A stretch of 32,000 nucleotides of DNA from positions 690,001 through 722,000 of the forward strand of contig JBAZVE010000001.1 of assembly GCA_041661045.1 (NCBI GenBank), in the 5' to 3' direction. This DNA is from Candidatus Saccharimonadota bacterium (GTDB taxonomy: Bacteria; Patescibacteriota; Gracilibacteria; UBA1369; 2-02-FULL-48-14). Every line of letters starts with the position of its first letter. Positions within the stretch are counted from its first letter, which is position 1. Both the position numbers and the translations under genes were made by a program. This document shows, piece after piece, positions 2,964-15,650 of this stretch. Under the pieces are notes generated by a model that ran no database searches, was not told where the DNA came from, and was given only the letters and a program-made list of their open reading frames with translations.

Positions 2964-2979
2964 CTCGTTGCGCTGATTT

Positions 2980-3567: not shown

Positions 3568-3685
3568 AAGATTTCGCAGTATGCGATATTCACTGGCTGT
3601 ATAATATCGCACGAAGTGCAGTGCAGCCAGTGAATATGGGTGTAGCGAGGTGCAACCGAGCGAAACCGCATACTGCGTGTTGCCA
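3564..3685 (-). repeat. attC-like site (B), left box degenerate
   Basis: L stems are cgcagtatgcg / cgcatactgcg, followed by -T-gttgcca. The P2 arm is cactggctg..cagccagtg with a ..gcacGAAgtgc.. loop. The left box acataag is degenerate and overlaps a start codon. Confidence 0.6.
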
Positions 3686-3705
3686 TAGAATAATTACGCC
3701 AATTT

Positions 3706-3714
3706 TGGTATAAT
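3706..3714 (+). promoter_or_regulatory. extended -10 promoter (TGgTATAAT) for cassette methyltransferase
   Basis: TG-n-TATAAT at 3706-3714, 18 nt upstream of the ATG at 3733. Confidence 0.5.
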
Positions 3715-3732
3715 GAGATAATTAAAATTAAA

Positions 3733-4254: not shown

Positions 4255-4280
4255 TTGAGCGTCCTGTCAAAATTATTCTA

Positions 4281-4300
4281 TGGCAAAGTGCGTGTTAAGT
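4281..4300 (-). repeat. minimal remnant attC-like site (C)
   Basis: tggcaaa-GTGC-g-T-gttaagt. Both R boxes and the bulge are present with no body. The left hexamer plus 9 more nt (4272-4286) are the exact reverse complement of 3680-3694, next to site B. Confidence 0.5.
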
Positions 4301-4380
4301 GATGTAATTTTTCTGGTTTAATCCTTTGATCTCTAAAAGAAATCACCTTTTAAAGGGAATAAAAATTTGATTTTCCGTCA

Positions 4381-4704
4381 TTATATGTCAATAACTTCAA
4401 CATGATCAGCAATTCCTAGTTCCCATCTTGGGTTAAAATTAGGATCTCCAAAAGTTGCCTGATATCTAGGATCAAGGTCTTCCTCTCCTTGAAAAACAGC
4501 TTGTCCGAGTGTCAAAACTACTAAATCATGTGCTGTGCCAAATACTTCCTCAACGGCAATGTCATATGCTCTTTCAGCACTAACTGGCCATTCTTGTTGT
4601 AATCTTTTGGCAACATTTGGAGCGTTATATCCATCCGTGCCGGCAATGACTTTCATTACGACTTCATCATGTTCACATACCGATACTATTCCTTGTGTAC
4701 CCAT
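4381..4704 (-). CDS. hypothetical protein (cassette ORF)
   Basis: 107-aa ORF, the only long ORF between sites C and D. No recognisable domain. Confidence 0.6.
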   Translation of the reverse strand: MGTQGIVSVCEHDEVVMKVIAGTDGYNAPNVAKRLQQEWPVSAERAYDIAVEEVFGTAHDLVVLTLGQAVFQGEEDLDPRYQATFGDPNFNPRWELGIADHVEVIDI

Positions 4705-4860
4705 GCAAGTGTTAGTTAAGTATTTAGTGGTGTACTGTAGGTTGGAACCGTCGACTCGTCAAGATTAAAATTTATTGTCTAATATGGTTCTATTACAGAA
4801 AATCAAATTTTCGTTTCTTTTTAAAAGTTGACGGGATGGAAAAAGAGAAAAATGTATTTT

Positions 4861-4935
4861 GCCTAATGTCCCTGCGTAGCCAACTTGGGTGAGGGCTTTT
4901 GTAGAAAAGCCCTCACCAGCTATGTAGTGTTGTCG
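4861..4935 (-). repeat. attC-like site (D), short form lacking P2
   Basis: gcctaat-GTCC-ctgcgtagc ... gctatgtag-T-gttgtcg. The body is caacTTGGGTGAG plus a perfect 13-bp hairpin ggtgagggctttt/aaaagccctcacc. The two L-stem mismatches are G.T on the plus strand. Confidence 0.7.
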
Positions 4936-4967
4936 GAAGTATCCAGCTCACTAACTTTTTCAAAACT

Positions 4968-5237
4968 TTAATTTGCTTCTTCGTATTTTTCTAAAAAATT
5001 ATGCATTCTTTTATATTTTTCGTGCACAACAACATCCTCTAGAATTCCTTCAGCTCTTGTCTTTAACAGAATTCGTAAATTTTGAATTATCTGTGGCTGT
5101 ATATTGCCTTCATTGTCTGTTCTAGGTTGTATTTTTGCAAAGACTTCTCCCAAACTAGTCTCACTTAAATGTTCAAGTGCGGCTGCTCTTAACTGAGTCG
5201 GCGTGATTTTTGATGGTGATGTTTCGCCTAGTTCCAT
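4968..5237 (-). CDS. hypothetical protein (cassette ORF)
   Basis: 89-aa ORF. Its last codons and stop lie inside the cassette's terminal inverted repeat. Confidence 0.6.
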   Translation of the reverse strand: MELGETSPSKITPTQLRAAALEHLSETSLGEVFAKIQPRTDNEGNIQPQIIQNLRILLKTRAEGILEDVVVHEKYKRMHNFLEKYEEAN

Positions 5238-5243
5238 TTTTAA

Positions 5244-5271
5244 ATTATATCATATATTTCAAATTTTGCAA
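5244..5271 (-). promoter_or_regulatory. sigma70-like promoter TTGCAA-N16-TATAAT, leaderless geometry
   Basis: On the minus strand the -35 TTGCAA is at 5266-5271 and the -10 TATAAT at 5244-5249. Only 6 nt separate the -10 from the ATG (5237). Confidence 0.5.
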
Positions 5272-5308
5272 ATTAAAGTTTTGAAAAAGAACCAATTCTG
5301 GATATTTC

Positions 5309-5445
5309 GTACAACGGCTGTGCGTTGGTGAAGTTGGACAGTAGTAAAATATACGAAGTGTGACTACTGGCCAACTTGGGTGAGGGCTTTATGGTTGAGC
5401 GAAGCCAGCCTAAAAAAAGACCGAACTGCTAACGCGCTGTTGTAC
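5309..5445 (-). repeat. attC-like site (E)
   Basis: gtacaac-GGCT-gtgcgttgg ... ctaacgcgc-T-gttgtac. P2 is aagttggacagtagt-AAAATAT-acGAAgt-..actactggccaactt, followed by TTGGGTGAG. It contains an exact GCGAAGC. Confidence 0.8.
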
Positions 5446-5492
5446 GATGAAGAAAAAAATGCGTCGCAATTAAAGCACAAATGAATGGCTTT

Positions 5493-5789
5493 CTAGAGGA
5501 GATAGTCAAGGTCAGTGACGAGACTGCCCGTAATGTTCCTAAGTGGTGCCCCCATTTCTGAAGAGGGGTATTTTTCTTGAAACTCAGATAGAGAAGCGTT
5601 TATGACAGGGCCATTTACTGTGAGAGCATATACCACAATGTCATTTTTTCTTCCCAAAATAACAACAGTTCCTCGAGTGCCAAGGTGATTTTTGCCAGTA
5701 AAAACATCTCCTCTTTGTGGGTTGCTCCAGATTTCGTGGGCAATATCTTGAGGAGTTTCTTCATTGCTGGACGCACATGACTCAGCCAT
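5493..5789 (-). CDS. hypothetical protein (cassette ORF)
   Basis: 98-aa ORF, the only long ORF between sites E and F. Confidence 0.6.
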   Translation of the reverse strand: MAESCASSNEETPQDIAHEIWSNPQRGDVFTGKNHLGTRGTVVILGRKNDIVVYALTVNGPVINASLSEFQEKYPSSEMGAPLRNITGSLVTDLDYLL

Positions 5790-5815
5790 TTTGTGATTTT
5801 TTAAATTGTCCTCTC

Positions 5816-5824
5816 ATTATAGCA
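5816..5824 (-). promoter_or_regulatory. extended -10 promoter (TGcTATAAT) for ORF 5493-5789
   Basis: The minus strand reads aTGcTATAATgagaggacaatttaaaaaatcacaaaATG. Confidence 0.45.
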
Positions 5825-5838
5825 TTTTTTCCTTTTTC

Positions 5839-5954
5839 GTACAACGGTCGCAGTATAGCTGAAGTTTATACATGGTAAAATGACCGAAAAGCCAACCAAG
5901 TATAAACTTGGGTGAGGGCTGATCTAGCCCGAACCAGCTATACTGCTGTTAGCT
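5839..5954 (-). repeat. attC-like site (F)
   Basis: gtacaac-GGTC-gcagtatagctg ... cagctatactgc-T-gttagct. It has a P2 with GGTAAAAT, then TTGGGTGAG and a gggct/agccc hairpin, then GAAC. Confidence 0.8.
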
Positions 5955-5962
5955 GATGTTTA

Positions 5963-6274
5963 CTAAATAGATATATCAGTTGGATTTTGTTCCGCATATC
6001 CAAATTTACCTAGGATGTGATTTGCAGCAATCCATAAATCAGAATAATCACCATTAACGATGGCGCTTGTTTCGTCTGGCGATAGATTAGTAACTCCAGT
6101 GGATGCAAAGTCTACTAAAATATCTGTGAGGATTGTATCCTCAGGATGTTCTCTGGCAACATTTAATAATGTGGCAGCGTCAGAGGACTCAGAATGCATC
6201 TTAATGATCTTTGCCAAACCCAAAACTACTTTTTCGTGGGCACTTCGCTTAACTGGTTCGTCATCTATACTCAT
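5963..6274 (-). CDS. hypothetical acidic protein (cassette ORF)
   Basis: 103-aa ORF between sites F and G. Confidence 0.6.
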   Translation of the reverse strand: MSIDDEPVKRSAHEKVVLGLAKIIKMHSESSDAATLLNVAREHPEDTILTDILVDFASTGVTNLSPDETSAIVNGDYSDLWIAANHILGKFGYAEQNPTDISI

Positions 6275-6282
6275 GTCAGTGC

Positions 6283-6309
6283 ATTATAATATATTTCGAT
6301 TGCATGCAA
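6283..6309 (-). promoter_or_regulatory. sigma70-like promoter TTGCAT-N15-TATAAT, near-leaderless
   Basis: On the minus strand the -10 TATAAT is at 6283-6288, 8 nt from the ATG at 6274. The -35 TTGCAT is at 6304-6309. The spacer is 1-2 nt short. Confidence 0.4.
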
Positions 6310-6317
6310 TAAATTTC

Positions 6318-6377
6318 AGCTAATGTTGGGAATGACTGAGCGAAGCGAAGGAATGAACCGCATAGTCATTGTTAGGC
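6318..6377 (-). repeat. attC-like site (G), 60-bp short form
   Basis: agctaat-GTTG..atgact-gaGCGAAGCGAAGgaatGAACc-gcatagtcat-T-gttaggc. It lacks P2 and keeps the GCGAAGC mini-hairpin and GAAC. Confidence 0.65.
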
Positions 6378-6396
6378 GATGTGAATTTTTCTCCAA

Positions 6397-6720
6397 TTAT
6401 TTAGTAGCTTCTTCTTCTTTTTCAAAAATCTTTGAAATCAATTCACGTACAAATGCTTTAGCTTGCTCTACGTCTAGTTCCTCAACATATCCGTCTTCAT
6501 CTAATTTACCATTAAGTACTCCAGCCCTAATTAAGCTTTCAAAAACAGCAAAATCATAGCTACCTGACCCATTAAATCTCTTACCATCAAAAATTCTTTC
6601 CGGATTATTTGTCCATGGGGCTACGGCAAGTTGACGGAGATATTCTCTAAGAGTAACTTCTTTTGCGTTATATGGTTCGTTGGGTTTAACACTGATGTCT
6701 AGAATTTCTTTGTGGTTCAT
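6397..6720 (-). CDS. hypothetical protein (cassette ORF)
   Basis: 107-aa ORF with a consensus promoter immediately upstream. Confidence 0.65.
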   Translation of the reverse strand: MNHKEILDISVKPNEPYNAKEVTLREYLRQLAVAPWTNNPERIFDGKRFNGSGSYDFAVFESLIRAGVLNGKLDEDGYVEELDVEQAKAFVRELISKIFEKEEEATK

Positions 6721-6739
6721 GGTTTTTGAAATAGAATTT

Positions 6740-6767
6740 ATTATATGTCAATCATAATATTTGTCAA
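6740..6767 (-). promoter_or_regulatory. consensus sigma70 promoter TTGACA-N16-TATAAT inside cassette
   Basis: The minus strand reads caacTTGACAaatattatgattgacaTATAATaaattctatttcaaaaaccATG. Confidence 0.65.
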
Positions 6768-6791
6768 GTTGAATGTGGGAAAATTCATTTC

Positions 6792-6897
6792 GCCTAATGT
6801 TCGTGAATAACCGAAGGTTGCTAATGGTAAAACATGCCGAAGGCGGACCGTTGGCAACTTTGGGCGAACGAAGTGAGCCGGTTATTCACTGTTGTAC
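6792..6897 (-). repeat. attC-like site (H)
   Basis: gcctaat-GTTC-gtgaataaccg ... cggttattcac-T-gttgtac. P2 is gttgctaatggt-AAAACAT-gccGAAggc-gg-accgttggcaac with two G.T pairs. It is followed by TTTGGGCGAA and cGAAg. The body is about 90% identical to site M. Confidence 0.85.
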
Positions 6898-6930
6898 GCT
6901 GTATTAAAATTTGATCGCGTTCAGCGAGCA

Positions 6931-6959
6931 TTGGAAGAGTGGCAATTTTTTGCTATAAT
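6931..6959 (+). promoter_or_regulatory. sigma70-like promoter TTGGAA-N17-TATAAT for inverted cassette ORF
   Basis: The -35 is at 6931-6936 and the -10 at 6954-6959. The -35 lies inside the cassette's terminal inverted repeat. Confidence 0.6.
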
Positions 6960-6982
6960 GTAAAGAATTAACTTTTTGTTCT

Positions 6983-7399
6983 ATGGCCATGGAAGGTCCT
7001 AATTACGACGATCCGATTGAGCAAGATAAGCAACACGCTTTGAATCAAATTAGAACTATTGGGCCAGAAAAACCAGTAGGGTATTTGCCAGTAGAAACCA
7101 TCACAGGTTATTGTGGTCAAAATTTTGATGTATTTGTAGCAGAATGTCGTCAGAGAGGTCACGAAACTCGTATATTCACGGGCGGAGGATGGCCTGGTTT
7201 TTCTGGCTCATTGTATGTATATGATAAAGTTTCTCTGCAAAATTTGCTCAATCGGAACCAAAGTATTCTGGAACAATCTGGTTGGCCACTGAATCCTGAT
7301 GAATTTGTAGCTAATCTTCATGTTTGGGTTCAAGAAGGAACTCCTATTTTTAAGTTGATTGCTCAAGCATTTGGAGATAAGTTCAGCGAAAGTCTTTAA
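6983..7399 (+). CDS. hypothetical protein (cassette ORF, inverted relative to array)
   Basis: 138-aa ORF, the only long ORF between sites H and I, with its own promoter. Confidence 0.65.
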   Translation: MAMEGPNYDDPIEQDKQHALNQIRTIGPEKPVGYLPVETITGYCGQNFDVFVAECRQRGHETRIFTGGGWPGFSGSLYVYDKVSLQNLLNRNQSILEQSGWPLNPDEFVANLHVWVQEGTPIFKLIAQAFGDKFSESL

Positions 7400-7447
7400 G
7401 CAAAAATTGCCACTCTTTCAATCCTGTTAGGGAAATTTTAGTATGGC

Positions 7448-7569
7448 GTACAACGTCCGAGACTATGAGAAGTCGGACAGGTGTAAAATACGCTGAAGGC
7501 GTACACCTGTCCAATTTGGGTGAACGACTGATCAAAGAGAAGGAGTGAACCTCATAGTCTCTGTTGTGT
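7448..7569 (-). repeat. attC-like site (I)
   Basis: gtacaac-GTCC-gagactatgag ... ctcatagtctc-T-gttgtgt. P2 is gtcggacaggtgt-AAAATA-cgcTGAAGgcg-t-acacctgtccaat, followed by TTGGGTGAA and ..GAAC. Confidence 0.85.
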
Positions 7570-7598
7570 GATGTTTTGCTGCAGTTACCCAGCGTCTA

Positions 7599-7627
7599 TA
7601 GACAAAATATATGTAAAGTGTTATAAT
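7599..7627 (+). promoter_or_regulatory. sigma70-like promoter TAGACA-N17-TGtTATAAT for inverted cassette ORF
   Basis: The -35 is at 7599-7604. The extended -10 has TG at 7619-7620 and TATAAT at 7622-7627. Confidence 0.6.
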
Positions 7628-7652
7628 TCTTACTTATCCCTAAAGCTTTTAC

Positions 7653-8027
7653 ATGAAGTCAACTACCGATTCAGATCAACCACATTTTAATGGACTGGAG
7701 ATATCAGAGGTGCCCAGAAAAATAAGAGTACGAACTACAACATATCCAAATGGGCTTGTTGGTGTTTTGTCTAGGAATGGCAATTCTGTGACATTTAAGA
7801 CATTAGAAGATGAGAATTACCCCGCTATACAGCAAGCAGGTGGTTATTGCGATGCTGTTTGGGAGTATCAATTTGAATTAGATACTAATGGACAGCCCAT
7901 TCGTACGGTAGAGAAAACGCTTGTAGTAAAGGAAGGTCAGTGGGCACCTTTGGACCCTAGCTTTCCCGAGCATATATCGGAGGGGCCTAATTATATGTGG
8001 AGTGTAATTACTGACACATTGTCATAA
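7653..8027 (+). CDS. hypothetical protein (cassette ORF, inverted relative to array)
   Basis: 124-aa ORF between sites I and J, with its own promoter. Confidence 0.65.
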   Translation: MKSTTDSDQPHFNGLEISEVPRKIRVRTTTYPNGLVGVLSRNGNSVTFKTLEDENYPAIQQAGGYCDAVWEYQFELDTNGQPIRTVEKTLVVKEGQWAPLDPSFPEHISEGPNYMWSVITDTLS

Positions 8028-8045
8028 AAGCTGCAGCAAAATTTC

Positions 8046-8162
8046 ACACAATGTTCGAGACTATGTAAAGTTTGCCAGTGATAAAATATGCTGAAGGCGG
8101 ATCACTGGCAAATTTGAGCGAAACGAGCAAAGCGAAGTGGAGCTACATAGTCTCTGTTGTGA
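8046..8162 (-). repeat. attC-like site (J)
   Basis: acacaat-GTTC-gagactatgta ... tacatagtctc-T-gttgtga. P2 is gtttgccagtgat-AAAATAT-gcTGAAggc-gg-atcactggcaaat, followed by TTTGAGCGAA and aGCGAAGt. Confidence 0.85.
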
Positions 8163-8180
8163 GAAGTTGCTTTGAACTTT

Positions 8181-8408
8181 TTATTTTGCTTTCGATTTGC
8201 TCATTTGATGTACGATGAGCGAAACAATCAGGCCAATAACTCCACCAACAATCATGCTAACGAAAACAACGGGCACAACTGGATTTGAGGATTCTAAATC
8301 TTGAGAGACAATGAATTGGATAGTGCTATAGACGGTGAGAGCTGAGACTAGCCCACAGAGGAGGCCTGTTGCAATGCCTGTTGTATAGAGATGTTTTGGA
8401 TGATGCAT
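8181..8408 (-). CDS. small two-TM membrane protein (paralog of 10213-10440)
   Basis: 75 aa, MHHPKHLY..two hydrophobic helices..SKSKAK. About 70% identical by eye to the ORF at 10213-10440. Confidence 0.7.
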   Translation of the reverse strand: MHHPKHLYTTGIATGLLCGLVSALTVYSTIQFIVSQDLESSNPVVPVVFVSMIVGGVIGLIVSLIVHQMSKSKAK

Positions 8409-8475
8409 AAGTGTAAAGTAAATTATTACCCTGATTGTTTAGACTCTTTTATATTATATGGTTCAAAGCAATTTC

Positions 8476-8581
8476 GTACAACGGTCGCGCATAAACGAAG
8501 AAGACCAGCGGTAGAATATCCCGTAGGGTTACCGCTGGTCAATTTGTGCGAACGAAGTGAGCTGTTTATGCGCTGTTGTAC
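8476..8581 (-). repeat. attC-like site (K)
   Basis: gtacaac-GGTC-gcgcataaac ... gtttatgcgc-T-gttgtac. P2 is gaccagcggt-AGAATAT-cccGTAggg-tt-accgctggtc, followed by TTTGTGCGAA and cGAAg. Confidence 0.85.
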
Positions 8582-8598
8582 GATGCCGTGAAAAATGG

Positions 8599-8841
8599 CT
8601 ACTCTTTTACTGGAAGACAGGTAATTGTACCTAATTCACCACTAACCCAATTGCCATCTAAATCATATAGTCTTGTGATAGTAGATGTTCCGTCAGGATT
8701 GTTTTCCAAAACTTCTCCATGAAATTGTTTGGTAGGGTCATAGGGTTTAAGGCCAAAGTTACTCATCCAGCTAAATTGTGAAAAAGTAAATCTAGGCAAT
8801 TCTTTTGCTTCTTCAGGGGAAAGGGTACGTGGATTCTCCAT
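8599..8841 (-). CDS. hypothetical protein (cassette ORF)
   Basis: 80-aa ORF between sites K and L. Confidence 0.6.
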   Translation of the reverse strand: MENPRTLSPEEAKELPRFTFSQFSWMSNFGLKPYDPTKQFHGEVLENNPDGTSTITRLYDLDGNWVSGELGTITCLPVKE

Positions 8842-8897
8842 ATTTCATGGTGATTAGGAATGTAAACTACTCTAATTATAACATTTTTCACGGTTTC

Positions 8898-9036
8898 GTA
8901 CAACGTTCCGCACTATGCGAACTTGTGCAGGTGTAAAATAGCCGAAGGCGGACACCTGTACAAGTTGGGTGAAGGTTTTTCAGGCTGCGCAAAGCCAGCC
9001 GATCAGAAAACCTGAACCGCATAGTGCGTGTTGTAC
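8898..9036 (-). repeat. attC-like site (L), near-identical body to P
   Basis: gtacaac-GTTC-cgcactatgcg ... cgcatagtgcg-T-gttgtac. P2 is cttgtgcaggtgt-AAAATA-gccGAAggc-gg-acacctgtacaag with one G.T pair. It is followed by TTGGGTGAA, P3 aggtttt../..aaaacct and GAAC. Confidence 0.85.
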
Positions 9037-9062
9037 GCTGTAATAAAAAATGCGATGACAAA

Positions 9063-9296
9063 CTATTTATCTTTCTTTTCTTCAACTCCACCAACCCATT
9101 GAACAACAGGCTTTGCCACTTCTGGCGTAGTTAGAGGTTCGAAAACTACTTCCCCAGCTTTTTTTGCTGTATCACCTGCTTGTGAAACAACTGGAGGTTG
9201 TAAACCATCCCAAGTAACAGCAGGAGATTCTGGCTTGGCAGGTGGCAAAGCCTCCCATGCAGTTACAGGAGATTCTGTTTTTTTTGTGTCAGACAT
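9063..9296 (-). CDS. hypothetical Pro/Val-rich small protein (cassette ORF)
   Basis: 77-aa ORF between sites L and M. Low-complexity composition. Confidence 0.55.
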   Translation of the reverse strand: MSDTKKTESPVTAWEALPPAKPESPAVTWDGLQPPVVSQAGDTAKKAGEVVFEPLTTPEVAKPVVQWVGGVEEKKDK

Positions 9297-9352
9297 GTAA
9301 ATGTTTGTTAAATTATGGTCTATCAGATGATTATAGCATTTTTTGTTATGGC

Positions 9353-9458
9353 GTACAATGTCCGTGAATAACCGAAGGTTGCTAATGGTAAAATATGCCG
9401 AAGGCCAACCATTAGCAACTTTGAGCGAACGAAGTGAGCCGGTTATTCACTGTTAGGC
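9353..9458 (-). repeat. attC-like site (M), H family
   Basis: gtacaat-GTCC-gtgaataaccg ... cggttattcac-T-gttaggc. The P2 stem gttgctaatggt/accattagcaac is perfectly paired. Confidence 0.85.
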
Positions 9459-9472
9459 GTTGGTTAGGGGTG

Positions 9473-10003
9473 CTAACGAATTGATGAAAAAATTTCTTCG
9501 ACTAAACCAGCTTCTGCGACTGGGGGCTGAAAAAATATTTGGCAATAATAATCCTGAGATTTTTCTTCTGACCATTCAGCAAGACTGAGACCGATGTTGC
9601 CATTTCCAACATTATCTTGAGTGCCAAATATTGAGTATTTTACTTTTACTAATTCGTCTTGTTTCTCAAAAGTGCGAGTGTCGGATTGAAGTATTTCAGC
9701 CTCCATGCCGCCTTGCCAGTCGCAGTCGATCATCATTGTTTTCTCCTGTTTTGCGTCGTAAAACTGTGTATAAACTCCTCCTGAATCATAAGTCTCATCA
9801 GCATAAGTCCAAGATGAAGGGTAATCTAATTCATAATTAATGCTACCGAATGTGAAGGAGGTAAGCAGGGCTTCTGGGCTTTCGACTGCGACGACATCAT
9901 CTGTTTCAATGGTAATACCGGAATTTATAGCAGTATCATCTACTTGTGACGAACAGGCGGCAAAAGAAACTGTGATAGCGAATAGGAGTAGAAATTTTTT
10001 CAT
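9473..10003 (-). CDS. putative lipoprotein, unknown function (cassette ORF)
   Basis: 176 aa. The signal peptide has a lipobox-like MKKFLLLFAITVSFAAC. Confidence 0.7.
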   Translation of the reverse strand: MKKFLLLFAITVSFAACSSQVDDTAINSGITIETDDVVAVESPEALLTSFTFGSINYELDYPSSWTYADETYDSGGVYTQFYDAKQEKTMMIDCDWQGGMEAEILQSDTRTFEKQDELVKVKYSIFGTQDNVGNGNIGLSLAEWSEEKSQDYYCQIFFQPPVAEAGLVEEIFSSIR

Positions 10004-10078
10004 ATTTACTTGTTAAATGATACTTGAATCATATCGGAAGTTGTTGTTTTTACAAAACTTCTCGTACCTCTAACTTTC

Positions 10079-10192
10079 GCCTAACGTTCGCGCATATGCA
10101 AAGTGCGAGCGCGGTAAAATGTTAGCACGCAGTGCTACACCGCGCGAGCATTTGGGCGAGGCCTCAGCCAAGCTGCATATGCGCTGTTGTAC
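10079..10192 (-). repeat. attC-like site (N)
   Basis: gcctaac-GTTC-gcgcatatgca ... tgcatatgcgc-T-gttgtac. P2 is gtgcgagcgcggt-AAAATGT-tagcacGCAgtgcta-c-accgcgcgagcat, followed by TTGGGCGAG. Confidence 0.85.
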
Positions 10193-10212
10193 GGTGTTGC
10201 TTTGAGCAAACA

Positions 10213-10440
10213 CTATTTGGTTTTTGATTTACTAACTTGATGTACTGTGAAAGACACGATCGAGCCAATAATGCCTCCAACTAAAAGGCTTATAACTACA
10301 ACTGCAATAACTGGATTTGTTGTTTCTAAGTCTTGTGAAGCAATATATTGCATTGTGCTGTATACGGTTAGTGCAGAAATAAGACCGCAGAGGACACCTG
10401 TTACTAGACCTGTCACATAAAGATGTTTTGGATGATGCAT
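10213..10440 (-). CDS. small two-TM membrane protein (paralog of 8181-8408)
   Basis: 75 aa, MHHPKHLY...SKSKTK. Same length and architecture as the ORF at 8181-8408. Confidence 0.7.
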   Translation of the reverse strand: MHHPKHLYVTGLVTGVLCGLISALTVYSTMQYIASQDLETTNPVIAVVVISLLVGGIIGSIVSFTVHQVSKSKTK

Positions 10441-10501
10441 ATTGATGAAATTAATTATTGGCTTGATTGAATATGATTATTGTACTGCTCAAAGCAATTT
10501 C

Positions 10502-10625
10502 GTATAACGGCCGAGAATATGTGAAGTTTTGTAGCGGTACAATTTGCCCGAAGGGCTCACCACTACAAAACTTGGGTGAGCGACTGAGTGGAACGAAGGA
10601 GAGAACCACATATTCTCTGTTAAGT
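10502..10625 (-). repeat. attC-like site (O)
   Basis: gtataac-GGCC-gagaatatgtg ... cacatattctc-T-gttaagt. P2 is gttttgtagcggt-ACAATTT-gcccGAAgggc-tc-accactacaaaac, followed by TTGGGTGAG and ..GAAC. Confidence 0.85.
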
Positions 10626-10641
10626 GGTGTTGTGCTGATTT

Positions 10642-11154
10642 TTACTTACAATATCCAGTAGACTTGTCATAAGTCTTACCATCGGAGCAGCTGCAACGGG
10701 CATTTAACCAGTCGCCATCCGTTTCCGTACAGTTATTCCCTACGACATCAGTCCAAAAATAATATGCCCCTTCTGGGTTCGGCAAGCCAACAGACACAGC
10801 AAAAGCGGCTCCACCTGGACCGCCGAATGTCGTCTGGCAGTAACCTGTTTTTTTGTCGTACATCATCTCTTGCGTTTGCCTTTCTTCTAGCGGACATTCA
10901 CAAACACTGTCGCTAAATGAACCGCCACTTAATTCACAGTTATATCCAACTAATTCGTCCCATTCATTTGATGAAGTGACTTCAGTTATAGTTTCAGGTT
11001 CGTTTAGTTCTTGCTCTTGGACGGAAACTGATGGCGACTCTTGCGATTCATTCGTTTGCCAAAAGTAAACTCCTCCACCACCAATCAATGCAGCGATAAC
11101 TGCAACGAGTACCATTTTGCTTGTTTGAGACATAAATGTTTTGGTTAAATGCAA
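10642..11154 (-). CDS. Cys-rich membrane-anchored secreted protein, unknown function (cassette ORF)
   Basis: 170 aa. The N-terminal TM helix ends GGGGVYFWQ, followed by an acidic linker. The C-terminal domain has about 10 Cys and a repeated KxTGYC motif. The start may be the internal MSQTSK. Confidence 0.65.
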   Translation of the reverse strand: MHLTKTFMSQTSKMVLVAVIAALIGGGGVYFWQTNESQESPSVSVQEQELNEPETITEVTSSNEWDELVGYNCELSGGSFSDSVCECPLEERQTQEMMYDKKTGYCQTTFGGPGGAAFAVSVGLPNPEGAYYFWTDVVGNNCTETDGDWLNARCSCSDGKTYDKSTGYCK

Positions 11155-11185
11155 ATTTAGCTTACGGGAAAATCAGCGCAATGTC

Positions 11186-11323
11186 ACTTAACGTCCCGCA
11201 CTATGCGAGCTTGTGCAGGTGTAAAATAGCCGAAGGCGGACACCTGTACAAGTTGGGTGAAGGTTTTCAGGCTGCGCGAAGCCAGCCCATCAGAAAACCT
11301 GAACCGCATAGTGCGTGTTATAT
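11186..11323 (-). repeat. attC-like site (P), near-identical body to L
   Basis: acttaac-GTCC-cgcactatgcg ... cgcatagtgcg-T-gttatat. The body matches L almost base for base and contains an exact GCGAAGC. Both R-box hexamers differ from those of L. Confidence 0.85.
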
Positions 11324-11327
11324 GGTT

Positions 11328-11720
11328 TTATTTGCCATCTTCCAAGACGCAATCTGCTTCAATTTCAATCAGCCATTCTGGATTTATAAATCCAGACACT
11401 TCTGCGAAAGTACAGGCGGGCTGTATGTTAGAGAAAAATTCTCCGTGAGCTTTTGCAGCATCTTTCCACGTTTTCATATCTCTTAACAAGATACGTGTGC
11501 GAATTACATCTTCAAGCGAACCGCCGGCTTGCTCGATAACATTTTTGATAATCGTTAGGCAACGTTTCGATTGTTCATATACATTGCCTGGAGAATGAAC
11601 TGAACCATCTTCCGCAATTGGCGCAGTTCCAGTGACAGCGATAAAGTTGCCGATTCTTACAGCCCGCGAAAACCCAATTTCTTTTTCTAACGGCTGATTG
11701 TAAGTGATGTTTTTTCTCAT
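11328..11720 (-). CDS. ridA: RidA/YjgF/UK114 family protein (cassette ORF)
   Basis: 130 aa. FSRAVRIGNFIAVTGTAP...VYEQSKRCLTIIKNVIEQAGGSLEDVIRTRILL...IEIEADC is the typical RidA family pattern. Confidence 0.85.
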   Translation of the reverse strand: MRKNITYNQPLEKEIGFSRAVRIGNFIAVTGTAPIAEDGSVHSPGNVYEQSKRCLTIIKNVIEQAGGSLEDVIRTRILLRDMKTWKDAAKAHGEFFSNIQPACTFAEVSGFINPEWLIEIEADCVLEDGK

Positions 11721-11757
11721 AAATGTTTTTTAAGAGGTAGTGCAGGCAAATAATGCC

Positions 11758-11883
11758 ATATAACGGCTGGGTATAGGCGATGTTGTTGCGCGGTAAAATA
11801 TGCCACGAAGTGGCTCACCGCGCAACAATATGGGAGAACGAAGAAGCGAAGCGACTGAGTGAACCGCCTATACCCTGTTACAT
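11758..11883 (-). repeat. attC-like site (Q)
   Basis: atataac-GGCT-gggtataggcg ... cgcctataccc-T-gttacat. P2 is gttgttgcgcggt-AAAATAT-gccacGAAgtggc-tc-accgcgcaacaat. It is followed by an exact GCGAAGC and GAAC. Confidence 0.85.
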
Positions 11884-12004
11884 GATGTGCATATTTTCCT
11901 TAATTTCTTGAAAAGGAATTCTTCTTTAAAAGAGACTGATTTTGTTTTCTGTTTTGGGCGAGGGCAGAGGGGATTAAGGGGTGAATGCCCGAGCCCAAAA
12001 CTCC

Positions 12005-12832
12005 TCATTCCACGTCTCCTTGCGCTATCCTATTTTGTGCTTCTTGCATTAATTTCTCTGCTTCCTTTTTCATGAGATCATTAATTCTGTCTACTGCATC
12101 CATACTTCCGTTATATCTTTCCATTACTTTCTTATCCCTGAAGTATTTCAGAGTTGTTCCCTCGTATTTCCATACTGTCCAAAGACGATTTTTCATCAGC
12201 TTGAGGTTGTAAACTTTTGCTTCGGCAATGGAGAGGGCATTTTCAATCTTGAGTGAATTTACGAATGTCTCAATCATGGTTATGAATCCGCCAAAATTTT
12301 CGACGAAAGCTGTTCGTTGAGCTGGCGGTCTCATTCGTTCGGGTGTTGCCATTCTCTCATTGCGATCCAGCAACCTTTCAAAGTCATATCGAAATTGTTT
12401 AATATTGCCGTTTGCTGATCTTACCAAGTAATCAGTGATTAAAATTTTGTTGTGAACATAATAACTTTTGAGTCTCATTTTGATCAGATCTTCATCAAAG
12501 TAAATGGCAATGGTTGCTGGGAAATTAGTCTCTTGGATAGCATAAAAATTTGGGTCGGTTACTACTTGAACTTGCTCCACAATTGTTTTTGCTCTGGCAA
12601 TAAAATCTTCAAGCTGACTGACTGCGACAAGTAAATGACTTAATGTTTGAGAAAAAGCTATCTCTGTCCGCCTGATTGCTTCTTTTCTGTTTGATCTCTT
12701 TTGTAGGCACCCTTTAACTAAAAATCCAATAACTGAGAGAATGATTGCTAAAAATGGACCTAGGGCAGAGCCAATTAGCGTTTGCCATTTTTCGATAAAT
12801 TCAGTTGATGTGATTAATTTTAGTGTTTCCAT
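12005..12832 (-). CDS. hypothetical membrane-anchored protein (third gene of three-gene cassette)
   Basis: 275 aa with one TM helix near the N-terminus and a helical/coiled C-terminal part. No recognisable domain. Confidence 0.65.
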   Translation of the reverse strand: METLKLITSTEFIEKWQTLIGSALGPFLAIILSVIGFLVKGCLQKRSNRKEAIRRTEIAFSQTLSHLLVAVSQLEDFIARAKTIVEQVQVVTDPNFYAIQETNFPATIAIYFDEDLIKMRLKSYYVHNKILITDYLVRSANGNIKQFRYDFERLLDRNERMATPERMRPPAQRTAFVENFGGFITMIETFVNSLKIENALSIAEAKVYNLKLMKNRLWTVWKYEGTTLKYFRDKKVMERYNGSMDAVDRINDLMKKEAEKLMQEAQNRIAQGDVE

Positions 12833-12872
12833 TGCTTGTGGATGATACTCTTTTTACCCTATAAAAAACACC

Positions 12873-13508
12873 TTAATTGTATGAGGGAACAGAATGTTCC
12901 CTACAATCATAGTTGCCTTTTATGTTGGCGTTATAGTAACTGCCAAAGGAGGATGCTTTTTGCAGTTCTGCCCAAATTGACTTTGGTGTTTCGCAATAGT
13001 GATAATATTTTCCATTAATGTTCATAATCAAGTAACTGTTGCTTTTGTCGTACCATGCGCCTTCGATGAAAGAGCTTTTTGATGTATTTAAGTATTCAAA
13101 ATATGAACTATCGAGATTAACGGAATCTTTTCGATACTGAACAGCAACGTAATTCTGTTTTGATTGTGAATCTTTTTCGTACTTTTCAAGGCAATCAAAA
13201 AGAATATCGGTCATTAACGATTCTTCTTCGTCTTCAAGCTCGAAGGTCGGATATTCGCCTTGAGAATTTACGAAAGAACCATCTGGTTGAGTTATGTATC
13301 CCTGAGAATTCAGAAATTCATTTCCTTTTTGGGCGGCTTCAGAAAGACAAACGTCATAGAAAGGTGAAGATGTTATCTCCTCAATGGTATTTTTTGATGA
13401 ATTGTCTTGAATATCTGGCCTGAGAACGTAAAACATGAAGCCACCAATAAGAAGTGTCCAAAAGGCAACTATGATTATTATTGGTTTTTTGGAGGAATTA
13501 GTTTTCAT
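12873..13508 (-). CDS. hypothetical membrane-anchored secreted protein (second gene of three-gene cassette)
   Basis: 211 aa with an N-terminal TM helix (PIIIIVAFWTLLIGGFMFYVL) and a soluble domain. Confidence 0.65.
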   Translation of the reverse strand: MKTNSSKKPIIIIVAFWTLLIGGFMFYVLRPDIQDNSSKNTIEEITSSPFYDVCLSEAAQKGNEFLNSQGYITQPDGSFVNSQGEYPTFELEDEEESLMTDILFDCLEKYEKDSQSKQNYVAVQYRKDSVNLDSSYFEYLNTSKSSFIEGAWYDKSNSYLIMNINGKYYHYCETPKSIWAELQKASSFGSYYNANIKGNYDCREHSVPSYN

Positions 13509-13517
13509 AAGTCTGTA

Positions 13518-13781
13518 TCACGTTAAATTAGTAATAATGCCGTAAAGTATAGAAAAAATAATGAAGGAAAAAATAATTCCAAGCTGAATCAGTATGCTTT
13601 TTTTGAGTGGAAATTTGTATATTGCTTCCAAAATTATCCCCAAGGCCAATATCAACGTTAAAACTACTAGCCAAATTATAGAAAAATTAAAATGCCACAT
13701 TAACAGCTCTAACAATATGTAAACAAAAATAATGCCTTGGTTTGTTCTATTATTAAATGTTTTTGTTAGAGCGTTTTTCAT
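13518..13781 (-). CDS. hypothetical small integral membrane protein (first gene of three-gene cassette)
   Basis: 87 aa with 2-3 hydrophobic helices. It lies 9 nt upstream of the next ORF. Confidence 0.55.
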   Translation of the reverse strand: MKNALTKTFNNRTNQGIIFVYILLELLMWHFNFSIIWLVVLTLILALGIILEAIYKFPLKKSILIQLGIIFSFIIFSILYGIITNLT

Positions 13782-13914
13782 GGTTTGTATTATATAGTAA
13801 ATTGTTTTCGGAGCGAAGCGGAGAAAACTCCTTATTTCCCCTCTATAAAACAGAAAACAAAATCAGATCTCATTTTTAAGAATTGGCTTTAGCCAAAAGG
13901 AAAATATGCATTTC

Positions 13915-14036
13915 ATGTAACGTCCGTGTGTTGGCGAAGTTTGGACGTGGTAAAATTAGCACGAAGTGCGTACCACGGCCAAACTTGTGAGAGGCTTTTC
14001 TGGAGGAAAGGCCGAACCGCTAACACACTGTTATGT
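13915..14036 (-). repeat. attC-like site (R), attC of the integrase-proximal cassette
   Basis: atgtaac-GTCC-gtgtgttggcg ... cgctaacacac-T-gttatgt. P2 is gtttggacgtggt-AAAATTA-gcacGAAgtgc-gt-accacggccaaac, followed by TTGTGAGAG, a P3 hairpin and GAAC. Confidence 0.85.
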
Positions 14037-14104
14037 GCTGTTTCATTTTTCATTTGCGACTGAAGGGAGCAAATGTGAGCAAAGTGAACAGAGAAATGCT
14101 TTTA

Positions 14105-14473: not shown

Positions 14474-14523
14474 ATTTTTTGGATTAAGTGATTAAAAGCA
14501 TTTCTCTAAAAAATGGAATGGCA

Positions 14524-14760
14524 CATAACTCGTTTCTAACGGAAAACAGTGCGGCTAGCAAGGGGGAATGGGGTGTTTTGGTGAAATGGGGGAGGAGGAG
14601 TGAAGAAACGAGTTGTGGGGAGTGGGGTGACAAAAAGGTGAATTCTGTAAGGAATTTGTCAGGTTTTTGTCATGAATTTGTCAGAAGGGCGGGGTGGGAG
14701 TGGGAAAAATTCAGGAAAGTTTAAGGAAAAATTCAGAAAAAATTCAGGATTTTTTCAGGT
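14524..14760 (-). promoter_or_regulatory. attI-like junction and intI/cassette intergenic control region
   Basis: acataa|c at 14524-14530 is the exact complement of the site R right box gttatgt, and the cassette inverted repeat ends there. Further right lie 2x GAATTTGTCAG (14652, 14674; 22 bp apart), 3x AAAAATTCAGR (14705, 14727, 14738) and a tract of (R)TGGGG runs (14562-14704). Confidence 0.6.
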
Positions 14761-14805: not shown

Positions 14806-15618
14806 ATGGAACTCAAAGAAGCTTTGGCCTTAATGGAAAGAGAGCTTCGGCTGAGGCATTACAGCTCTAAAACGGTGAAAAATTACTTAAGATGTGTGGA
14901 GCTTTATTTTTCGGGGAAGAAAAGTTTGGCGTATCGGGAGGAGGAGCTCAAAGGGTTTTTGTTTGGGAAGCTTGAAGCTGGGGCGGCGCCGGAGACGGTG
15001 AATCTTTATCTTTGTGCGGTGAAGTTTTTTTATAAACAATGTTTGCACTTTAAGGGTATTGTGAAAGTTCGTTTTGCGCGAAGAAATGTGCGCTTGCCGG
15101 TGGTGCTTTCGAGGGAGGAGATCCTTAAGATTTTAGAATTTATTCCCAACACAAAGCACCGTTATTTGGTGGCGCTGGCGTATGGGGCGGGGCTGCGCGT
15201 GAGTGAGGTGGTTCGGTTGAGGGTTGCAGATCTTGATTTTGCACGGAAGCTGCTTGTGGTGCGAGAAGGGAAGGGTGGCAAAGCGAGGGTGACGCTTTTG
15301 CCCGAAAATTTGAGGGAAGAGCTGAAGAGTTTTGTTGTGGGGAAAGTGGCGATGGATTTTGTGTTTGAGAGTGAACGGGGTGGGGCTTTGAGTACACGGT
15401 CGGCTCAAAAGGTTTTTGCGGTGGCTTTGGAGAAAACGGGACTGCAGAAAGAGGCTTCGTTCCATTCTTTGCGGCACAGTTTTGCGACGCATTGTTTGGA
15501 AAATGGAGTGGACAGTCGCTTCATTCAAAAACTGCTTGGACACAGTGCCATTCGTACTACAGAAAGGTATACGCAAGTGAGTCAGGTGAGTTTGGCGGGA
15601 ATTCGGAGTCCACTTTAG
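14806..15618 (+). CDS. IntI-like tyrosine recombinase lacking the IntI-specific insertion
   Basis: About 270 aa from the ATG at 14806 (the track starts at TTG 14761). Blocks shared with IntI1 are RLPVVLSxEE, YGAGLRVSE, LRVADLDF, VREGKGGKAR, HSLRHSFATH, LLGHS and ERYTQV, plus the C-terminal GIRSPL. Only about 58 aa separate GKGGKAR from HSLRH, against about 105 in IntI1. Confidence 0.85.
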   Translation: MELKEALALMERELRLRHYSSKTVKNYLRCVELYFSGKKSLAYREEELKGFLFGKLEAGAAPETVNLYLCAVKFFYKQCLHFKGIVKVRFARRNVRLPVVLSREEILKILEFIPNTKHRYLVALAYGAGLRVSEVVRLRVADLDFARKLLVVREGKGGKARVTLLPENLREELKSFVVGKVAMDFVFESERGGALSTRSAQKVFAVALEKTGLQKEASFHSLRHSFATHCLENGVDSRFIQKLLGHSAIRTTERYTQVSQVSLAGIRSPL

Positions 15619-15650
15619 GGTTTTGATTTTTATCTTATGATTTTTGTGAA

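Follow-up and report, generated by a model that had tools for sequence, protein, structure and literature searches.

The stretch of DNA analysed here (the window, 32,000 nucleotides from a Candidatus Saccharimonadota bacterium) contains an array of 15 attC-like sites (4861..14036, minus strand in reading direction), located with a scan of fixed geometry. The left and right boxes start, all on the minus strand, at 4861/4929, 5309/5439, 5839/5948, 6318/6371 and 6792/6891 (sites 1-5), 7448/7563, 8046/8156, 8476/8575, 8898/9030 and 9353/9452 (sites 6-10), and 10079/10186, 10502/10619, 11186/11317, 11758/11877 and 13915/14030 (sites 11-15). Each site is an imperfect palindrome bounded by AAC and GTT triplets at the cassette ends, as in an integron, and the geometry is constant at all 15: AAC + 4 nt + stem1 ... 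stem1' + 1 nt + GTT. Stem1 has no bulges, and the sole asymmetry is the 4 nt versus 1 nt beside the R helix; the extrahelical bases characteristic of integrons on the R''-L'' arm of the folded bottom strand are absent. Near-identical attC cores flank unrelated cassette bodies, and every core has on its + strand the motif TGnTAAAAT, which resembles an extended -10 element. The attC signature occurs 2.49 times per 10 kb upstream of the recombinase gene, in one orientation, versus 0.05-0.32 elsewhere. An attC finder based on local alignment of the inner flanks was replaced by the fixed 4/1 geometry scan because the large one-sided bulge made true sites inseparable from background. An Rfam scan of the window returned nothing but one tRNA.

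The array ends at 14529 and is followed by a terminal attI-like site (14523..14617, no strand assigned; ACATAAC|TCGTTTCTAA...AGAAACGAGTTGTGG) that is itself hairpin-like. Conservation of this site with a related locus, L001, begins exactly past the AAC. The recombinase gene starts at 14806 on the strand opposite to the cassette ORFs, the divergent layout with an attI that is expected of integrons; it is also found in L001 and in many metagenome loci. In the close syntenic relatives L002-L005, no array was found within ~700 nt upstream of the recombinase gene. Boxes match 7.0/8 across one cassette versus 6.0/9 within one attC, and this agreement of the variable R' with the R'' of its own cassette is indirect evidence that crossover may occur at G|TT, as in integrons. 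Homologous cassettes in L034 and L071 were compared to map the cassette boundaries; the cores that flank them are themselves related.

The recombinase (14806..15618, + strand) is a tyrosine recombinase of 270 aa, IntI/XerA-like and without the IntI-specific insertion. The integron integrase model TIGR02249 gives 194.6 bits versus a cut-off of 265 and is matched in two stretches. When the protein is aligned with VchIntIA (IntI4, 2a3v), query residues 177-199 face residues 181-246, and therefore ~43 aa are missing, corresponding to the IntI-specific insertion. The additional domain peculiar to IntI (the I2 helix) is thus lacking, and the protein has the make-up of a Xer-type enzyme without insertions. 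A XerA model scores 190 bits, the PDB matches are XerA-type chains (E = 1e-34 and 5e-31), and close homologues are all 260-275 aa long. In the literature this recombinase family has been described as Xer-related only, as the 'Cand' subgroup (Smyshlyaev et al. 2021, PMC8138268). Deletion of I2 from a classical IntI is expected to impair recombination of single-stranded attC sites (PMC4792948).

Complementarity between the two ends of a cassette extends well beyond the boxes. Of the 16 well-defined cassettes between 4294 and 14529, 15 have ends in which the ~24 nt that follow the GTT box complement the ~24 nt that precede the next AAC box, and further complementary blocks in five cassettes lengthen the arms to 50-100 nt. 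The original prediction for this DNA had given such arms to every cassette, each pair unique in sequence. The first claim applies to 15 of 16 cassettes and so not to all; as to the second, the arms are largely cassette-specific, but they form small families in which bases 8-12 are conserved. At its distal end (2500-4300) the array is degenerate and has no arms.

Arm coordinates, all given on the + strand, were obtained from an inverted-repeat search and an in-register comparison of cassette ends. The search recovered every arm pair in the prediction and added 5439/5845, 8575/8904, 9030/9359 and 4345-4381/4792-4828; the pairs 6371/6798 and 9452/10085 are visible only in the in-register comparison. 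In cassette 4294-4867 the arm 4294..4381 and its partner from the inverted-repeat search, 4792..4867, have a weak block 1 and a strong block 2 (4345-4381, 37 nt, 78%). Cassette 4929-5315 has at its right (GTT) box the arm 4929..4976 (block 1 4929-4946, block 2 4955-4976), and its partner, 5268..5315, ends in the left (AAC) box. The perfect 22-mer predicted for this pair was found again (4955-4976 / 5268-5289, 100% over 22 nt); as had been said, it covers a stop codon on one side (ORF 4968-5237, minus strand) and on the other overlaps a promoter-like TTGCAA-16-TATAAT at 5271-5244 (minus strand). The arms of cassette 5439-5845, 5439..5462 (inverted repeat 88%, also in register) and 5822..5845, are followed on the minus strand, directly after the latter, by TATAAT at bases 25-30. 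Two cassettes were delimited by in-register comparison: 5948-6324, with weak arms of ~15 nt (5948..5962 and 6310..6324), and 6371-6798 (6371..6389 and 6780..6798). The inverted-repeat search gives cassette 6891-7454 a two-block arm, 6891..6953, whose block 2 overlaps a + strand promoter-like site (6931-6959) of ORF 6983-7399, and a partner, 7400..7454, that begins directly past the stop codon of the same ORF.

Both methods locate the arms of cassettes 7563-8052 (7563..7584 and 8031..8052), 8156-8482 (8156..8177 and 8461..8482), 9030-9359 (9030..9056 and 9333..9359), 10186-10508 (10186..10208 and 10486..10508) and 10619-11192 (10619..10642 and 11169..11192), as well as the partner arms 8882..8904 and 11745..11764. 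The first of these two belongs to cassette 8575-8904, whose other arm, 8575..8597, is followed directly by the stop codon of ORF 8599-8841; the second belongs to cassette 11317-11764, where the arm 11317..11336 overlaps the last codons of ORF 11328-11720. The arms of cassette 9452-10085 (9452..9475 and 10062..10085) come from the in-register comparison. The three-gene cassette 11877-13921 has long, multi-block arms, 11877..11979 (inverted-repeat search) and 13831..13921. The latter lies within the cassette leader, which is conserved in cassettes from other metagenomes, and the former is an inverted, diverged copy of that leader. In the first cassette, 14030-14529, the arm 14030..14104 has a 39-nt purine-rich insertion between block 1 (14030-14050) and block 2 (14090-14104); its partner, 14493..14529, consists of block 2 (14493-14507) and block 1 (14509-14529).

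The pairing has a fixed register. In the in-register comparison of 16 unrelated cassettes, own partners pair at 81-100% at bases 2-9, at 0-12% (Watson-Crick) at bases 10-11 and at 75-100% at bases 12-21, and the background level is reached from base 25; block 1 ends at about base 22-25 across cassettes. This constant architecture of the extension, with its mismatch at bases 10-11 and its common end, is an addition to the original prediction. At bases 12-24 own partners match on average at 10.1/13 versus 4.1/13 (sd 2.1) for non-own ends in the same register, with cassette 5948-6324 (8/13) a weak exception. Non-own matches beyond base 12 amount to 22-34%, so the arms are private there. Of 17 cassettes, 15 align locally with their own partner at a score above the 95th percentile for non-own pairs. 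With the 16 window cassettes taken unselected, pairing is found in 90.3% of cells versus 59.7% in shuffles (90.3% was reached in 0 of 500), and in ~40% when the partners of the same cassettes are slid.

Changes in the arms tend to be matched on the other side. In the co-variation count for the window cassettes, 18 of 22 pairs have changed on both sides; related loci were also analysed. For example, the paralogous cassettes 8156-8482 and 10186-10508 have 71% overall identity and arms that differ at one position, where the change is compensated. Three cassettes have the arm end AAAAATG in common, and their bases 12-16 differ, again with compensation. Transition mismatches, read on the + strand, are G·T in 23 cases and A·C in 4 (p = 0.0003; p = 0.005 versus a 60:40 null), so that the strand with preserved pairing is the one antisense to most cassette mRNAs. 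The fixed register, the co-variation and the strand-biased wobble show that pairing has been maintained since the arms originated. GC skew is positive in the window, so part of the G·T excess could stem from strand-biased mutation.

Recombinases 46-67% identical to this one are accompanied by the same architecture in L001, L011, L034, L057, L062, L071 and L074, and an oriented attC-like hairpin array adjoins the gene in 14 of the 31 related loci with enough upstream DNA. The related arrays are bimodal. Among their 23 cassettes with good R boxes, 16 have the helix in place; in 5 of the remaining 7 it is present at 13-14/14 matches, displaced by an insertion of 22-93 nt at the base 10-11 loop. 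Classical cassettes behave differently. At bases 12-24 the match is 3.7/13 for 35 Vibrio chromosomal cassettes and 3-4/13 for 8 class 1 cassettes, and in both groups complementarity stops at bases 8-12. The contention that canonical cassettes pair in the R boxes alone is sound in that they lack the extended arms, and too strict in that their complementarity runs 1-5 bp past the 7-bp R box. An automatic k-mer definition of attC was workable in few of 80 gammaproteobacterial loci, and the Vibrio control consists of eight arrays with hand-checked motifs; Colwellia arrays were left out because their boxes are unclear. Neither integron-like arrays in candidate phyla nor an extended pairing of cassette ends turned up in the literature searched.

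Within the array the arms stand on either side of the ORF; once a cassette was excised as a circle they would, as had been anticipated, make the attC stem longer. In predicted folds of the circle junction a 13-bp outer helix is stacked on a 10-bp R helix. This fold is more stable than that of the same attC in its array context in 15/15 cases, by a mean of 10.8 kcal/mol (range 5.7-18.5), and in 15/15 cases the + strand gives the more stable fold. Between the R helix and stem1 there is a 3-nt bulge. Relative to the integrase gene, it lies on the arm opposite to the one with the extrahelical bases in Vibrio attC sites, and analogy with the classical choice of strand is therefore not straightforward.

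The best explanation, to which we give about even odds, sees the arms as an outer helix, private to each cassette, on the recombination hairpin of an integron-like system with a Xer-like recombinase. The bottom (+) strand of the cassette would fold by pairing of its own two ends. Bases 1-9 (the GTT/AAC box plus two) would form the R helix, bases 10-11 a conserved soft spot (T·T and G·T on the + strand, A·A and A·C on the other), and bases 12 to ~24 a helix of free sequence. Bases 2-12, TTRYRYGAAAT, could serve as an 11-nt arm resembling that of XerD in dif; in E. coli, dif has TTATGTTAAAT at its end, as the literature gives verbatim. This motif occurs 5 times in the window versus 0.55 expected, always at a cassette start. 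The outer helix would hold the whole 11-nt arm, its non-Watson-Crick end included, in continuous duplex, and the hairpin may thereby mimic a double-stranded Xer site for an enzyme without the IntI I2 domain. Crossover would be at AA|C, because of which the stem halves would stand at opposite cassette ends in the array; the full stem would exist only in the excised circle, or across a looped-out ORF in single-stranded array DNA. Use of the arms by the recombinase, the strand used and the crossover point are what we infer from this anatomy, and recombination of the bottom strand has indirect support from the G·T excess and the more stable folds of the + strand. Arms of 50-100 nt exceed what a closing helix needs, and therefore some other process would add length.

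Such a process might be all there is to the arms: they may be a decaying by-product of the making or copying of cassettes, with no role of their own. The promoter/leader end could have been duplicated in inverted form at the 3' end, or template switching at the hairpin base could have extended a palindrome. The multi-block arms of five cassettes do span almost all of their non-coding DNA, and arms end at a -10 box on one side and a stop codon on the other, as expected if only essential sequence limits extension. With the inverted copy of the conserved leader in cassette 11877-13921, the long arms suggest that some copying step lies behind them. Some copying from one end of the cassette to the other is needed in any case, since a private complement of 13-100 nt is beyond point mutation. 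Neutral relics, however, would not keep a single register with a conserved mismatch, stay perfect around insertions of 22-93 nt, diverge less than the ORF while acquiring compensated changes, or favour G·T on one strand by 23:4, and in the degenerate distal array the arms have decayed together with the attC sites. A by-product without function thus appears rather unlikely. Alternatively, the arms might act within the array, where the two ends of a cassette would pair across the ORF in single-stranded DNA and remove the R boxes from the attC fold; this would stabilise the array or define a cassette-centred substrate for excision. In minimum-energy folds of attC-cassette-attC + strands, 9 of 13 cassettes form such a cross-ORF helix (19-24/24 pairs), and in those nine the boxes of the attC itself form 0/7 pairs; in array context the attC flanks match at 4.4/13 and the boxes of one site at just 6.0/9. 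These are energy predictions for 600-900 nt of naked DNA, however, and the pairing would have to overcome single-strand-binding proteins and loops of 300-2000 nt. Action in the array is a quite unlikely account of the arms, and one compatible with the hairpin explanation, since the helix in question would still be there once the circle had formed.

Pairing could also work in RNA, between the ends of the cassette mRNA or in + strand (antisense) or read-through transcripts, for example as a processing mark. In RNA a G·U pair is stable, and the wobble is biased towards the + strand, on which every attC core has its extended -10-like TGnTAAAAT; cassettes also appear to have promoters of their own, and 5 of the 14 minus-strand cassettes have a TATAAT or TACAAT that occupies bases 25-30 exactly. 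A promoter scan of the window, however, gave 32 sites versus 26.6 in shuffles, which is not an enrichment, and for this reason the promoter reading depends on the boxes at bases 25-30. For sense mRNAs the bias has the wrong direction, mismatches on the minus strand being A·C. Where a cassette promoter can be recognised, the stretch from the R' box to the TATAAT is the 5' arm, which is therefore upstream of the transcript start. The predicted pairing of 5' UTR and 3' end in minus-strand cassette mRNAs is supported on neither count, and the recombination boxes inside both arms point to DNA; a function in RNA is improbable. Far-fetched by comparison with what is found is the idea of MITE/IS-like miniature transposons, each unit being bounded by terminal inverted repeats and the 'attC' sites being mere spacers. 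Inverted repeats that begin with a conserved 11-12 nt do bracket each ORF, and families of cassette ends are common to several metagenomes. Against this, the repeats are private to each unit beyond base 12, the units contain no transposase and are confined to the array, and the boxes have no target duplications; the supposed spacers are conserved, fixed-geometry hairpins in one orientation after a tyrosine recombinase gene in many genomes, and their near-identical cores flank unrelated bodies as in Vibrio arrays. MITE/TIR and terminator readings were both rejected, the arms being 300-2000 nt apart and followed by no T run.

For the explanation as a recombination hairpin, several known systems can be compared. 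As in classical integrons (the V. cholerae chromosomal integron and class 1), a gene for a tyrosine recombinase points away from an array whose small ORFs, most of them in one orientation, have imperfect AAC...GTT palindromes between them; attC cores are similar while cassette bodies are unrelated, with cargo mostly of unknown function, and the variable part of a box matches the box at the other end of its own cassette, which fits a G|TT crossover. In contrast to those systems, the recombinase has no I2 insertion, end complementarity covers ~24-100 nt with a mismatch at bases 10-11 where theirs stops at 8-12 nt, and stem1 has no extrahelical bases but a 3-nt bulge on the opposite arm beside the R helix. 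In addition, many cassettes here seem to have their own promoter at a fixed distance, and the terminal attI-like site is itself hairpin-like.

In the phage CTXphi, an IMEX, a hairpin of single-stranded phage DNA mimics a double-stranded dif-like site for XerCD (PMC4792948). Set against that system, the hairpin predicted here would likewise be duplex-like with an 11-nt Xer-like arm: the enzyme is of Xer type without I2, the folded stem would imitate a duplex and display no extrahelical bases, and TTRYRYGAAAT resembles the XerD arm of dif. Unlike CTXphi, the locus has many small gene cassettes beside the recombinase gene and no phage genes, and the stem halves are split by the crossover and stand at opposite cassette ends. 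Xer/dif resolution of chromosome dimers uses a double-stranded site with two inverted 11-nt arms around a centre of 6-8 nt; a scan of 166 loci other than the window found no such dif-like ATTTCRYRTAA-N5-9-TTAYRYGAAAT. In length (~270 aa), domain make-up and best matches the enzyme is like the 'Cand' Xer recombinases (PMC8138268) and XerA, XerS and XerH. The role assumed for those proteins is chromosome dimer resolution at a dif site of 28 nt, whereas here an attC-like array adjoins the gene.

Two questions about integrons have long been open: how cassettes arise, and how a Xer-like enzyme could have recombined folded single strands before there was a domain of the I2 type. The CPR arrays bear on both, combining a Xer-like enzyme without that domain with private stems of 24-100 nt, and the fixed design of the stem is open to mutation and test. 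The findings imply that integron finders keyed to the IntI insertion overlook a type of cassette array common among candidate-phyla bacteria (14/31 related loci with enough flanking DNA). It is possible, though we put the chances well short of even, that these arrays are a working integron lineage without I2, either a surviving proto-integron or a parallel invention, in which long stems belonging to each cassette imitate a double-stranded Xer site. If so, the units of recombination would be centred on the cassette and not on attC, the copied arms would be a readable trace of how cassettes were assembled, and there would be a living answer to what PMC4792948 asks, whether I2 or attC was the earlier.

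Pairing between arms, the complementary stretches at the two ends of one cassette, is confirmed not to be a product of chance in this array. Sixteen cassettes were defined from a GTT box to the next AAC box, and the first 40 nt of each were compared in register with the reverse complement of the last 40 nt, bases being counted inward from the cassette end. Bases 1-9 match between a cassette's own ends, and bases 10-11 essentially never do. Over bases 12-24 the mean is 10.1/13 matches with the own end vs. 4.1/13 (sd 2.1) with the ends of other cassettes; identity to the own partner is 75-100% across bases 12-21, drops to 50-62% across 22-24 and is at background from base 25. When the 16 cassettes, taken without selection, are aligned without gaps, 90.3% of cells are paired, compared to 59.7% in shuffles (0 of 500 attained the observed value) and ~40% when partners are slid, and 18 of 22 pairs show changes on both sides. 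All arm pairs listed in the original prediction were recovered by an inverted-repeat search, together with several unlisted ones. Additional blocks past the first occur in five cassettes: 4294-4867, 4929-5315, 6891-7454, 11877-13921 (~95 nt) and 14030-14529. The last of these, the window's first cassette, has a 39-nt insertion (14051-14089) followed by a perfect 15-nt second block. That every cassette carries arms was too broad a claim: pairing is weak in 5948-6324 and the in-register comparison found no cassette-end arms in the degenerate far end of the array, and otherwise the arm pairs hold.

The genome belongs to the candidate phyla (CPR). Its attC-like repeats, 60-140 nt each, form an array at ~2520-14529, left of the recombinase gene (14806-15618, + strand, 270 aa), and the minus strand carries most of the cassette ORFs. 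The array terminus ACATAAC|TCGTTTCTAA (14523-14529) is followed by non-repeat DNA and then by the recombinase gene; the array therefore reads on the minus strand, away from that gene, as in a classical integron, and the + strand corresponds to the integron 'bottom' strand. All attC share one + strand geometry: NNNNAAC, 4 nt, an 11-bp stem1, an inner stem/loop, a purine-rich one-sided insertion, stem1', 1 nt and GTTNNNN. Stem1 is without bulged bases. The sole asymmetry beside the R helix is 4 nt vs. 1 nt, a 3-nt bulge in the 5' half of the + strand, whereas in V. cholerae the corresponding strand carries its extra bases in the 3' half. The terminal attI-like site, AAC|TCGTTTCTAA ... AGAAACGA GTTGTG (14523-14617), is itself hairpin-like. 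It is kept in a Peregrinibacteria genome (locus L001, CP064962, ~9760-9880) with a 67% identical recombinase, and conservation begins exactly past AAC.

Some attC cores are nearly identical on unrelated cassette bodies, like Vibrio VCRs. Cores 8898-9036 and 11186-11323 are 97% identical from AAC to GTT, and 6792-6897 and 9353-9458 are 93% identical; the arms differ in both pairs. Degenerate, shortened or half attC are found at the far end of the array (1574-1690, 2523-2610, 2928-2963, 3564-3685 and 4262-4300). A (T)GnTAAAAT motif is conserved on the + strand in the apical part of each attC (e.g., 5874-5881, 8080-8087, 9387-9394, 10113-10120, 11792-11799 and 13949-13956); the L001 version is TGGTATAAT. 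It looks like an extended -10 promoter aimed toward the recombinase gene, antisense to most cassettes, or could be a protein-binding loop.

The arms belong to the cassette, not to attC. The two boxes of one attC in the array match at just 6.0/9, and their flanks at 4.4/13, which is background. When the cassette ends are joined as in an excised circle, the predicted + strand DNA fold stacks four elements: an outer helix of 13 bp, a 1x1 loop, an R helix of 10 bp and the 3-nt bulge into stem1. In 15/15 cases the predicted stability of this fold exceeds that of the same attC between its array flanks by 5.7-18.5 kcal/mol (mean 10.8), in keeping with the stem extension by cassette ends proposed originally, and the + strand fold always beats the - strand fold in predicted stability. 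For single-stranded array DNA, energy minimisation predicts a helix across the ORF in 9/13 cassettes, at the cost of the attC's own box pairing.

Classical cassettes lack this extension. Among 80 loci fetched around VchIntIA relatives, 35 distinct cassettes from eight Vibrio arrays, with hand-checked attC motifs, have own-partner complementarity of 74% at base 9, which drops to 46-49% over bases 10-11 and to the background level (23%) by base 12. Their bases 12-24 give 3.7/13 matches (maximum 6), with no excess of unregistered local complementarity beyond base 11 (14.9 vs. 15.2 in the non-own control). Eight class 1 cassettes (aadB, aadA2, blaVIM-2, two aac(6')-29, aac(6')-Ib4, arr-3 and dfrA14) show perfect pairing over 8-12 nt and none beyond (3-4/13). 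The original prediction that classical cassettes have no complementarity outside the R boxes is right in substance for both sets, except that they pair 1-5 bp past the 7-bp R box.

Mismatches in the helices are biased by strand. Transition mismatches appear on the + strand as 23 G·T vs. 4 A·C (p = 0.0003; p = 0.005 when the null is set at 60:40 to account for the positive GC skew). At bases 10-11, TG is opposite TT in 15/22 cassettes and opposite TG in 4, so that the + strand carries T·T with G·T, or a pair of wobbles, and the opposite strand A·A with A·C. Between the paralogues 8156-8482 and 10186-10508 (overall identity 71%) a single arm position has changed, with compensation in the partner (GAAC/GTTC vs. 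GAGC/GCTC). Three cassettes share the arm end AAAAATG and differ at bases 12-16 (AAGAA, CCGTG, TAATA), with partners changed to match or G·T-compatible. The description of each arm as unique needs softening. These substitution patterns indicate that pairing has been kept up, apparently under selection on the bottom strand.

Extended cassette-end pairing is a property of a CPR clade. Layout and attC geometry in L001 are the same as in the window. In a survey of 80 metagenome loci (recombinases 44-54% identical), a strict attC signature occurs at 2.49 per 10 kb upstream of the recombinase gene in the same orientation, compared to 0.05-0.32 per 10 kb elsewhere and 0.10 per 10 kb in gammaproteobacterial loci; of 31 loci whose upstream DNA extends over at least 3 kb, 14 have at least two attC sites. 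Among cassettes with well-matched boxes the bases 12-24 score is bimodal, 9-13 in 16/23 and 2-4 in seven. Five of these low scorers do have the partner arm (13-14/14 matches), displaced outward where 22-93 nt of purine-rich sequence are inserted directly at the loop of bases 10-11. Purine-rich one-sided insertions with GAGCGAAGCGA / GGAGTGAAC-like words, always on the same strand, lie inside attC cores and in several cassettes also at this loop. In the window they occupy 14051-14089 and the right-hand half of each attC (e.g., 7524-7548), and in related loci L011 5399-5460, L034 2442-2495, L057 1113-1207, L071 4397-4435 and L077 5545-5619. The closest syntenic contigs break at the array or are without one. 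The L001 array contains IS elements (rve, DDE_Tnp_1, Y1_Tnp; 1721-4442, 7157-7934, 8834-9262) and a HicA toxin pair (5308-5698) that appears inserted in one attC, with the left half at 5174 and the right half at 5772.

Unlike typical integron cassettes, many of those here seem to have a promoter of their own. TATAAT or TACAAT is found at exactly bases 25-30, in array direction, in 5/14 cassettes with minus-strand ORFs (minus strand, 5816-5821, 8453-8458, 8875-8880, 9330-9335 and 10479-10484); three of the five also have a TG two bases before it, the pattern of an extended -10 element. A generic promoter scan gave no enrichment over shuffles, so the promoter reading follows from positional regularity alone. 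In these five cassettes the 5' arm lies between the R' box (TTGTAC, a weak -35) and the -10 element, and it would therefore lie outside the cassette's own mRNA. Non-coding DNA at the other end is often just 11-27 nt, filled by the arm, which sometimes overlaps the stop codon. Pairing of the 5' UTR with the 3' end of cassette mRNA, also predicted, fails: the predicted position of the 5' arm upstream of the transcript and the strand bias argue against it. A conserved leader motif, GGGGAATAAGGTGTTTTCTCCGCTnCGCTCCGAAAAC with a GTTTTC...GAAAAC stem, is found upstream of the first gene in cassettes of different metagenomes (window ~13800-13840, minus strand; L014 ~8000-8090; L034 ~3110-3160 and 4400-4450; L071 ~6000-6050; L074 ~2090-2140 and 4010-4060), and no Rfam family matches it.

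The recombinase is 100% identical to a 'Candidatus Gracilibacteria' protein, the Peregrinibacteria enzyme being the next relative, and its close homologues all have the same length. VchIntIA (2a3v) is the best structural relative by sequence (E = 1.5e-39), matched in two pieces. Residues 177-199 align opposite IntI4 residues 181-246, and therefore ~43 residues of the IntI-specific insertion (I2) are missing. The integron-integrase model TIGR02249 scores 194.6 bits (cut-off 265), and the archaeal XerA model about equally. The genes yidC and likely rnpA, usually near a replication origin, lie at 23832-25426, ~10 kb from the array. GC skew changes sign nowhere in the window and is unusually high (+0.41) at 15001-16000, a stretch that covers the 3' end of the recombinase gene and the beginning of the ComEC gene. 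Smyshlyaev et al. placed candidate-phyla Xer-related recombinases in a 'Cand' subgroup, treated as Xer substitutes (PMC8138268).

Cassettes start, in array direction, with G|TTRYRYGAAAT, an 11-mer present 5 times in the window (0.55 expected) and always at cassette starts; the other end, read outward, is TTRYRYGATGT. The 11-mer resembles the XerD arm of E. coli dif, TTATGTTAAAT, confirmed verbatim in the literature. We infer that the arms serve to mimic a Xer site. Folding of the two cassette ends on the + strand would create a complete Xer-type arm of 11 nt, non-Watson-Crick at its two outermost positions, and the private helix beyond them would embed this arm in an uninterrupted duplex. Stem1, likewise of 11 bp, would act as the second arm, with the 4/1-nt asymmetry forming the site's centre, so that an enzyme lacking I2 would meet a near-duplex Xer site. 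Escudero et al. described I2 and extrahelical bases as a chicken-and-egg problem; as the nearest analogue they name CTXphi, in which a hairpin of single-stranded DNA 'mimics a ds-DNA molecule' for XerCD (PMC4792948). The crossover, which we infer at AA|C, would split the stem, and therefore the full stem would exist only where a cassette's own ends meet, in an excised circle or across a looped-out ORF in the single-stranded array. The cassette, rather than attC, would in this sense be the centre of the recombination unit.

The private 13-100 nt complement must have arisen by copying between the two cassette ends, either at cassette birth, as one of the original proposals has it, or possibly at a later stage. 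Traces of this step may be seen in the long multi-block arms and in the left arm of 11877-13921, which repeats in inverted and diverged form a leader also conserved in other metagenomes. Cassette-end pairing is confirmed as structured, conserved across the CPR clade and absent from the classical cassettes tested; a literature search found no publication on these arrays or the extended pairing, and the novelty claimed for the stem extension holds. We rate the array as an integron-like system with a different type of recombinase and a different site architecture, which tools demanding the IntI C-terminal signature would not call an integron.
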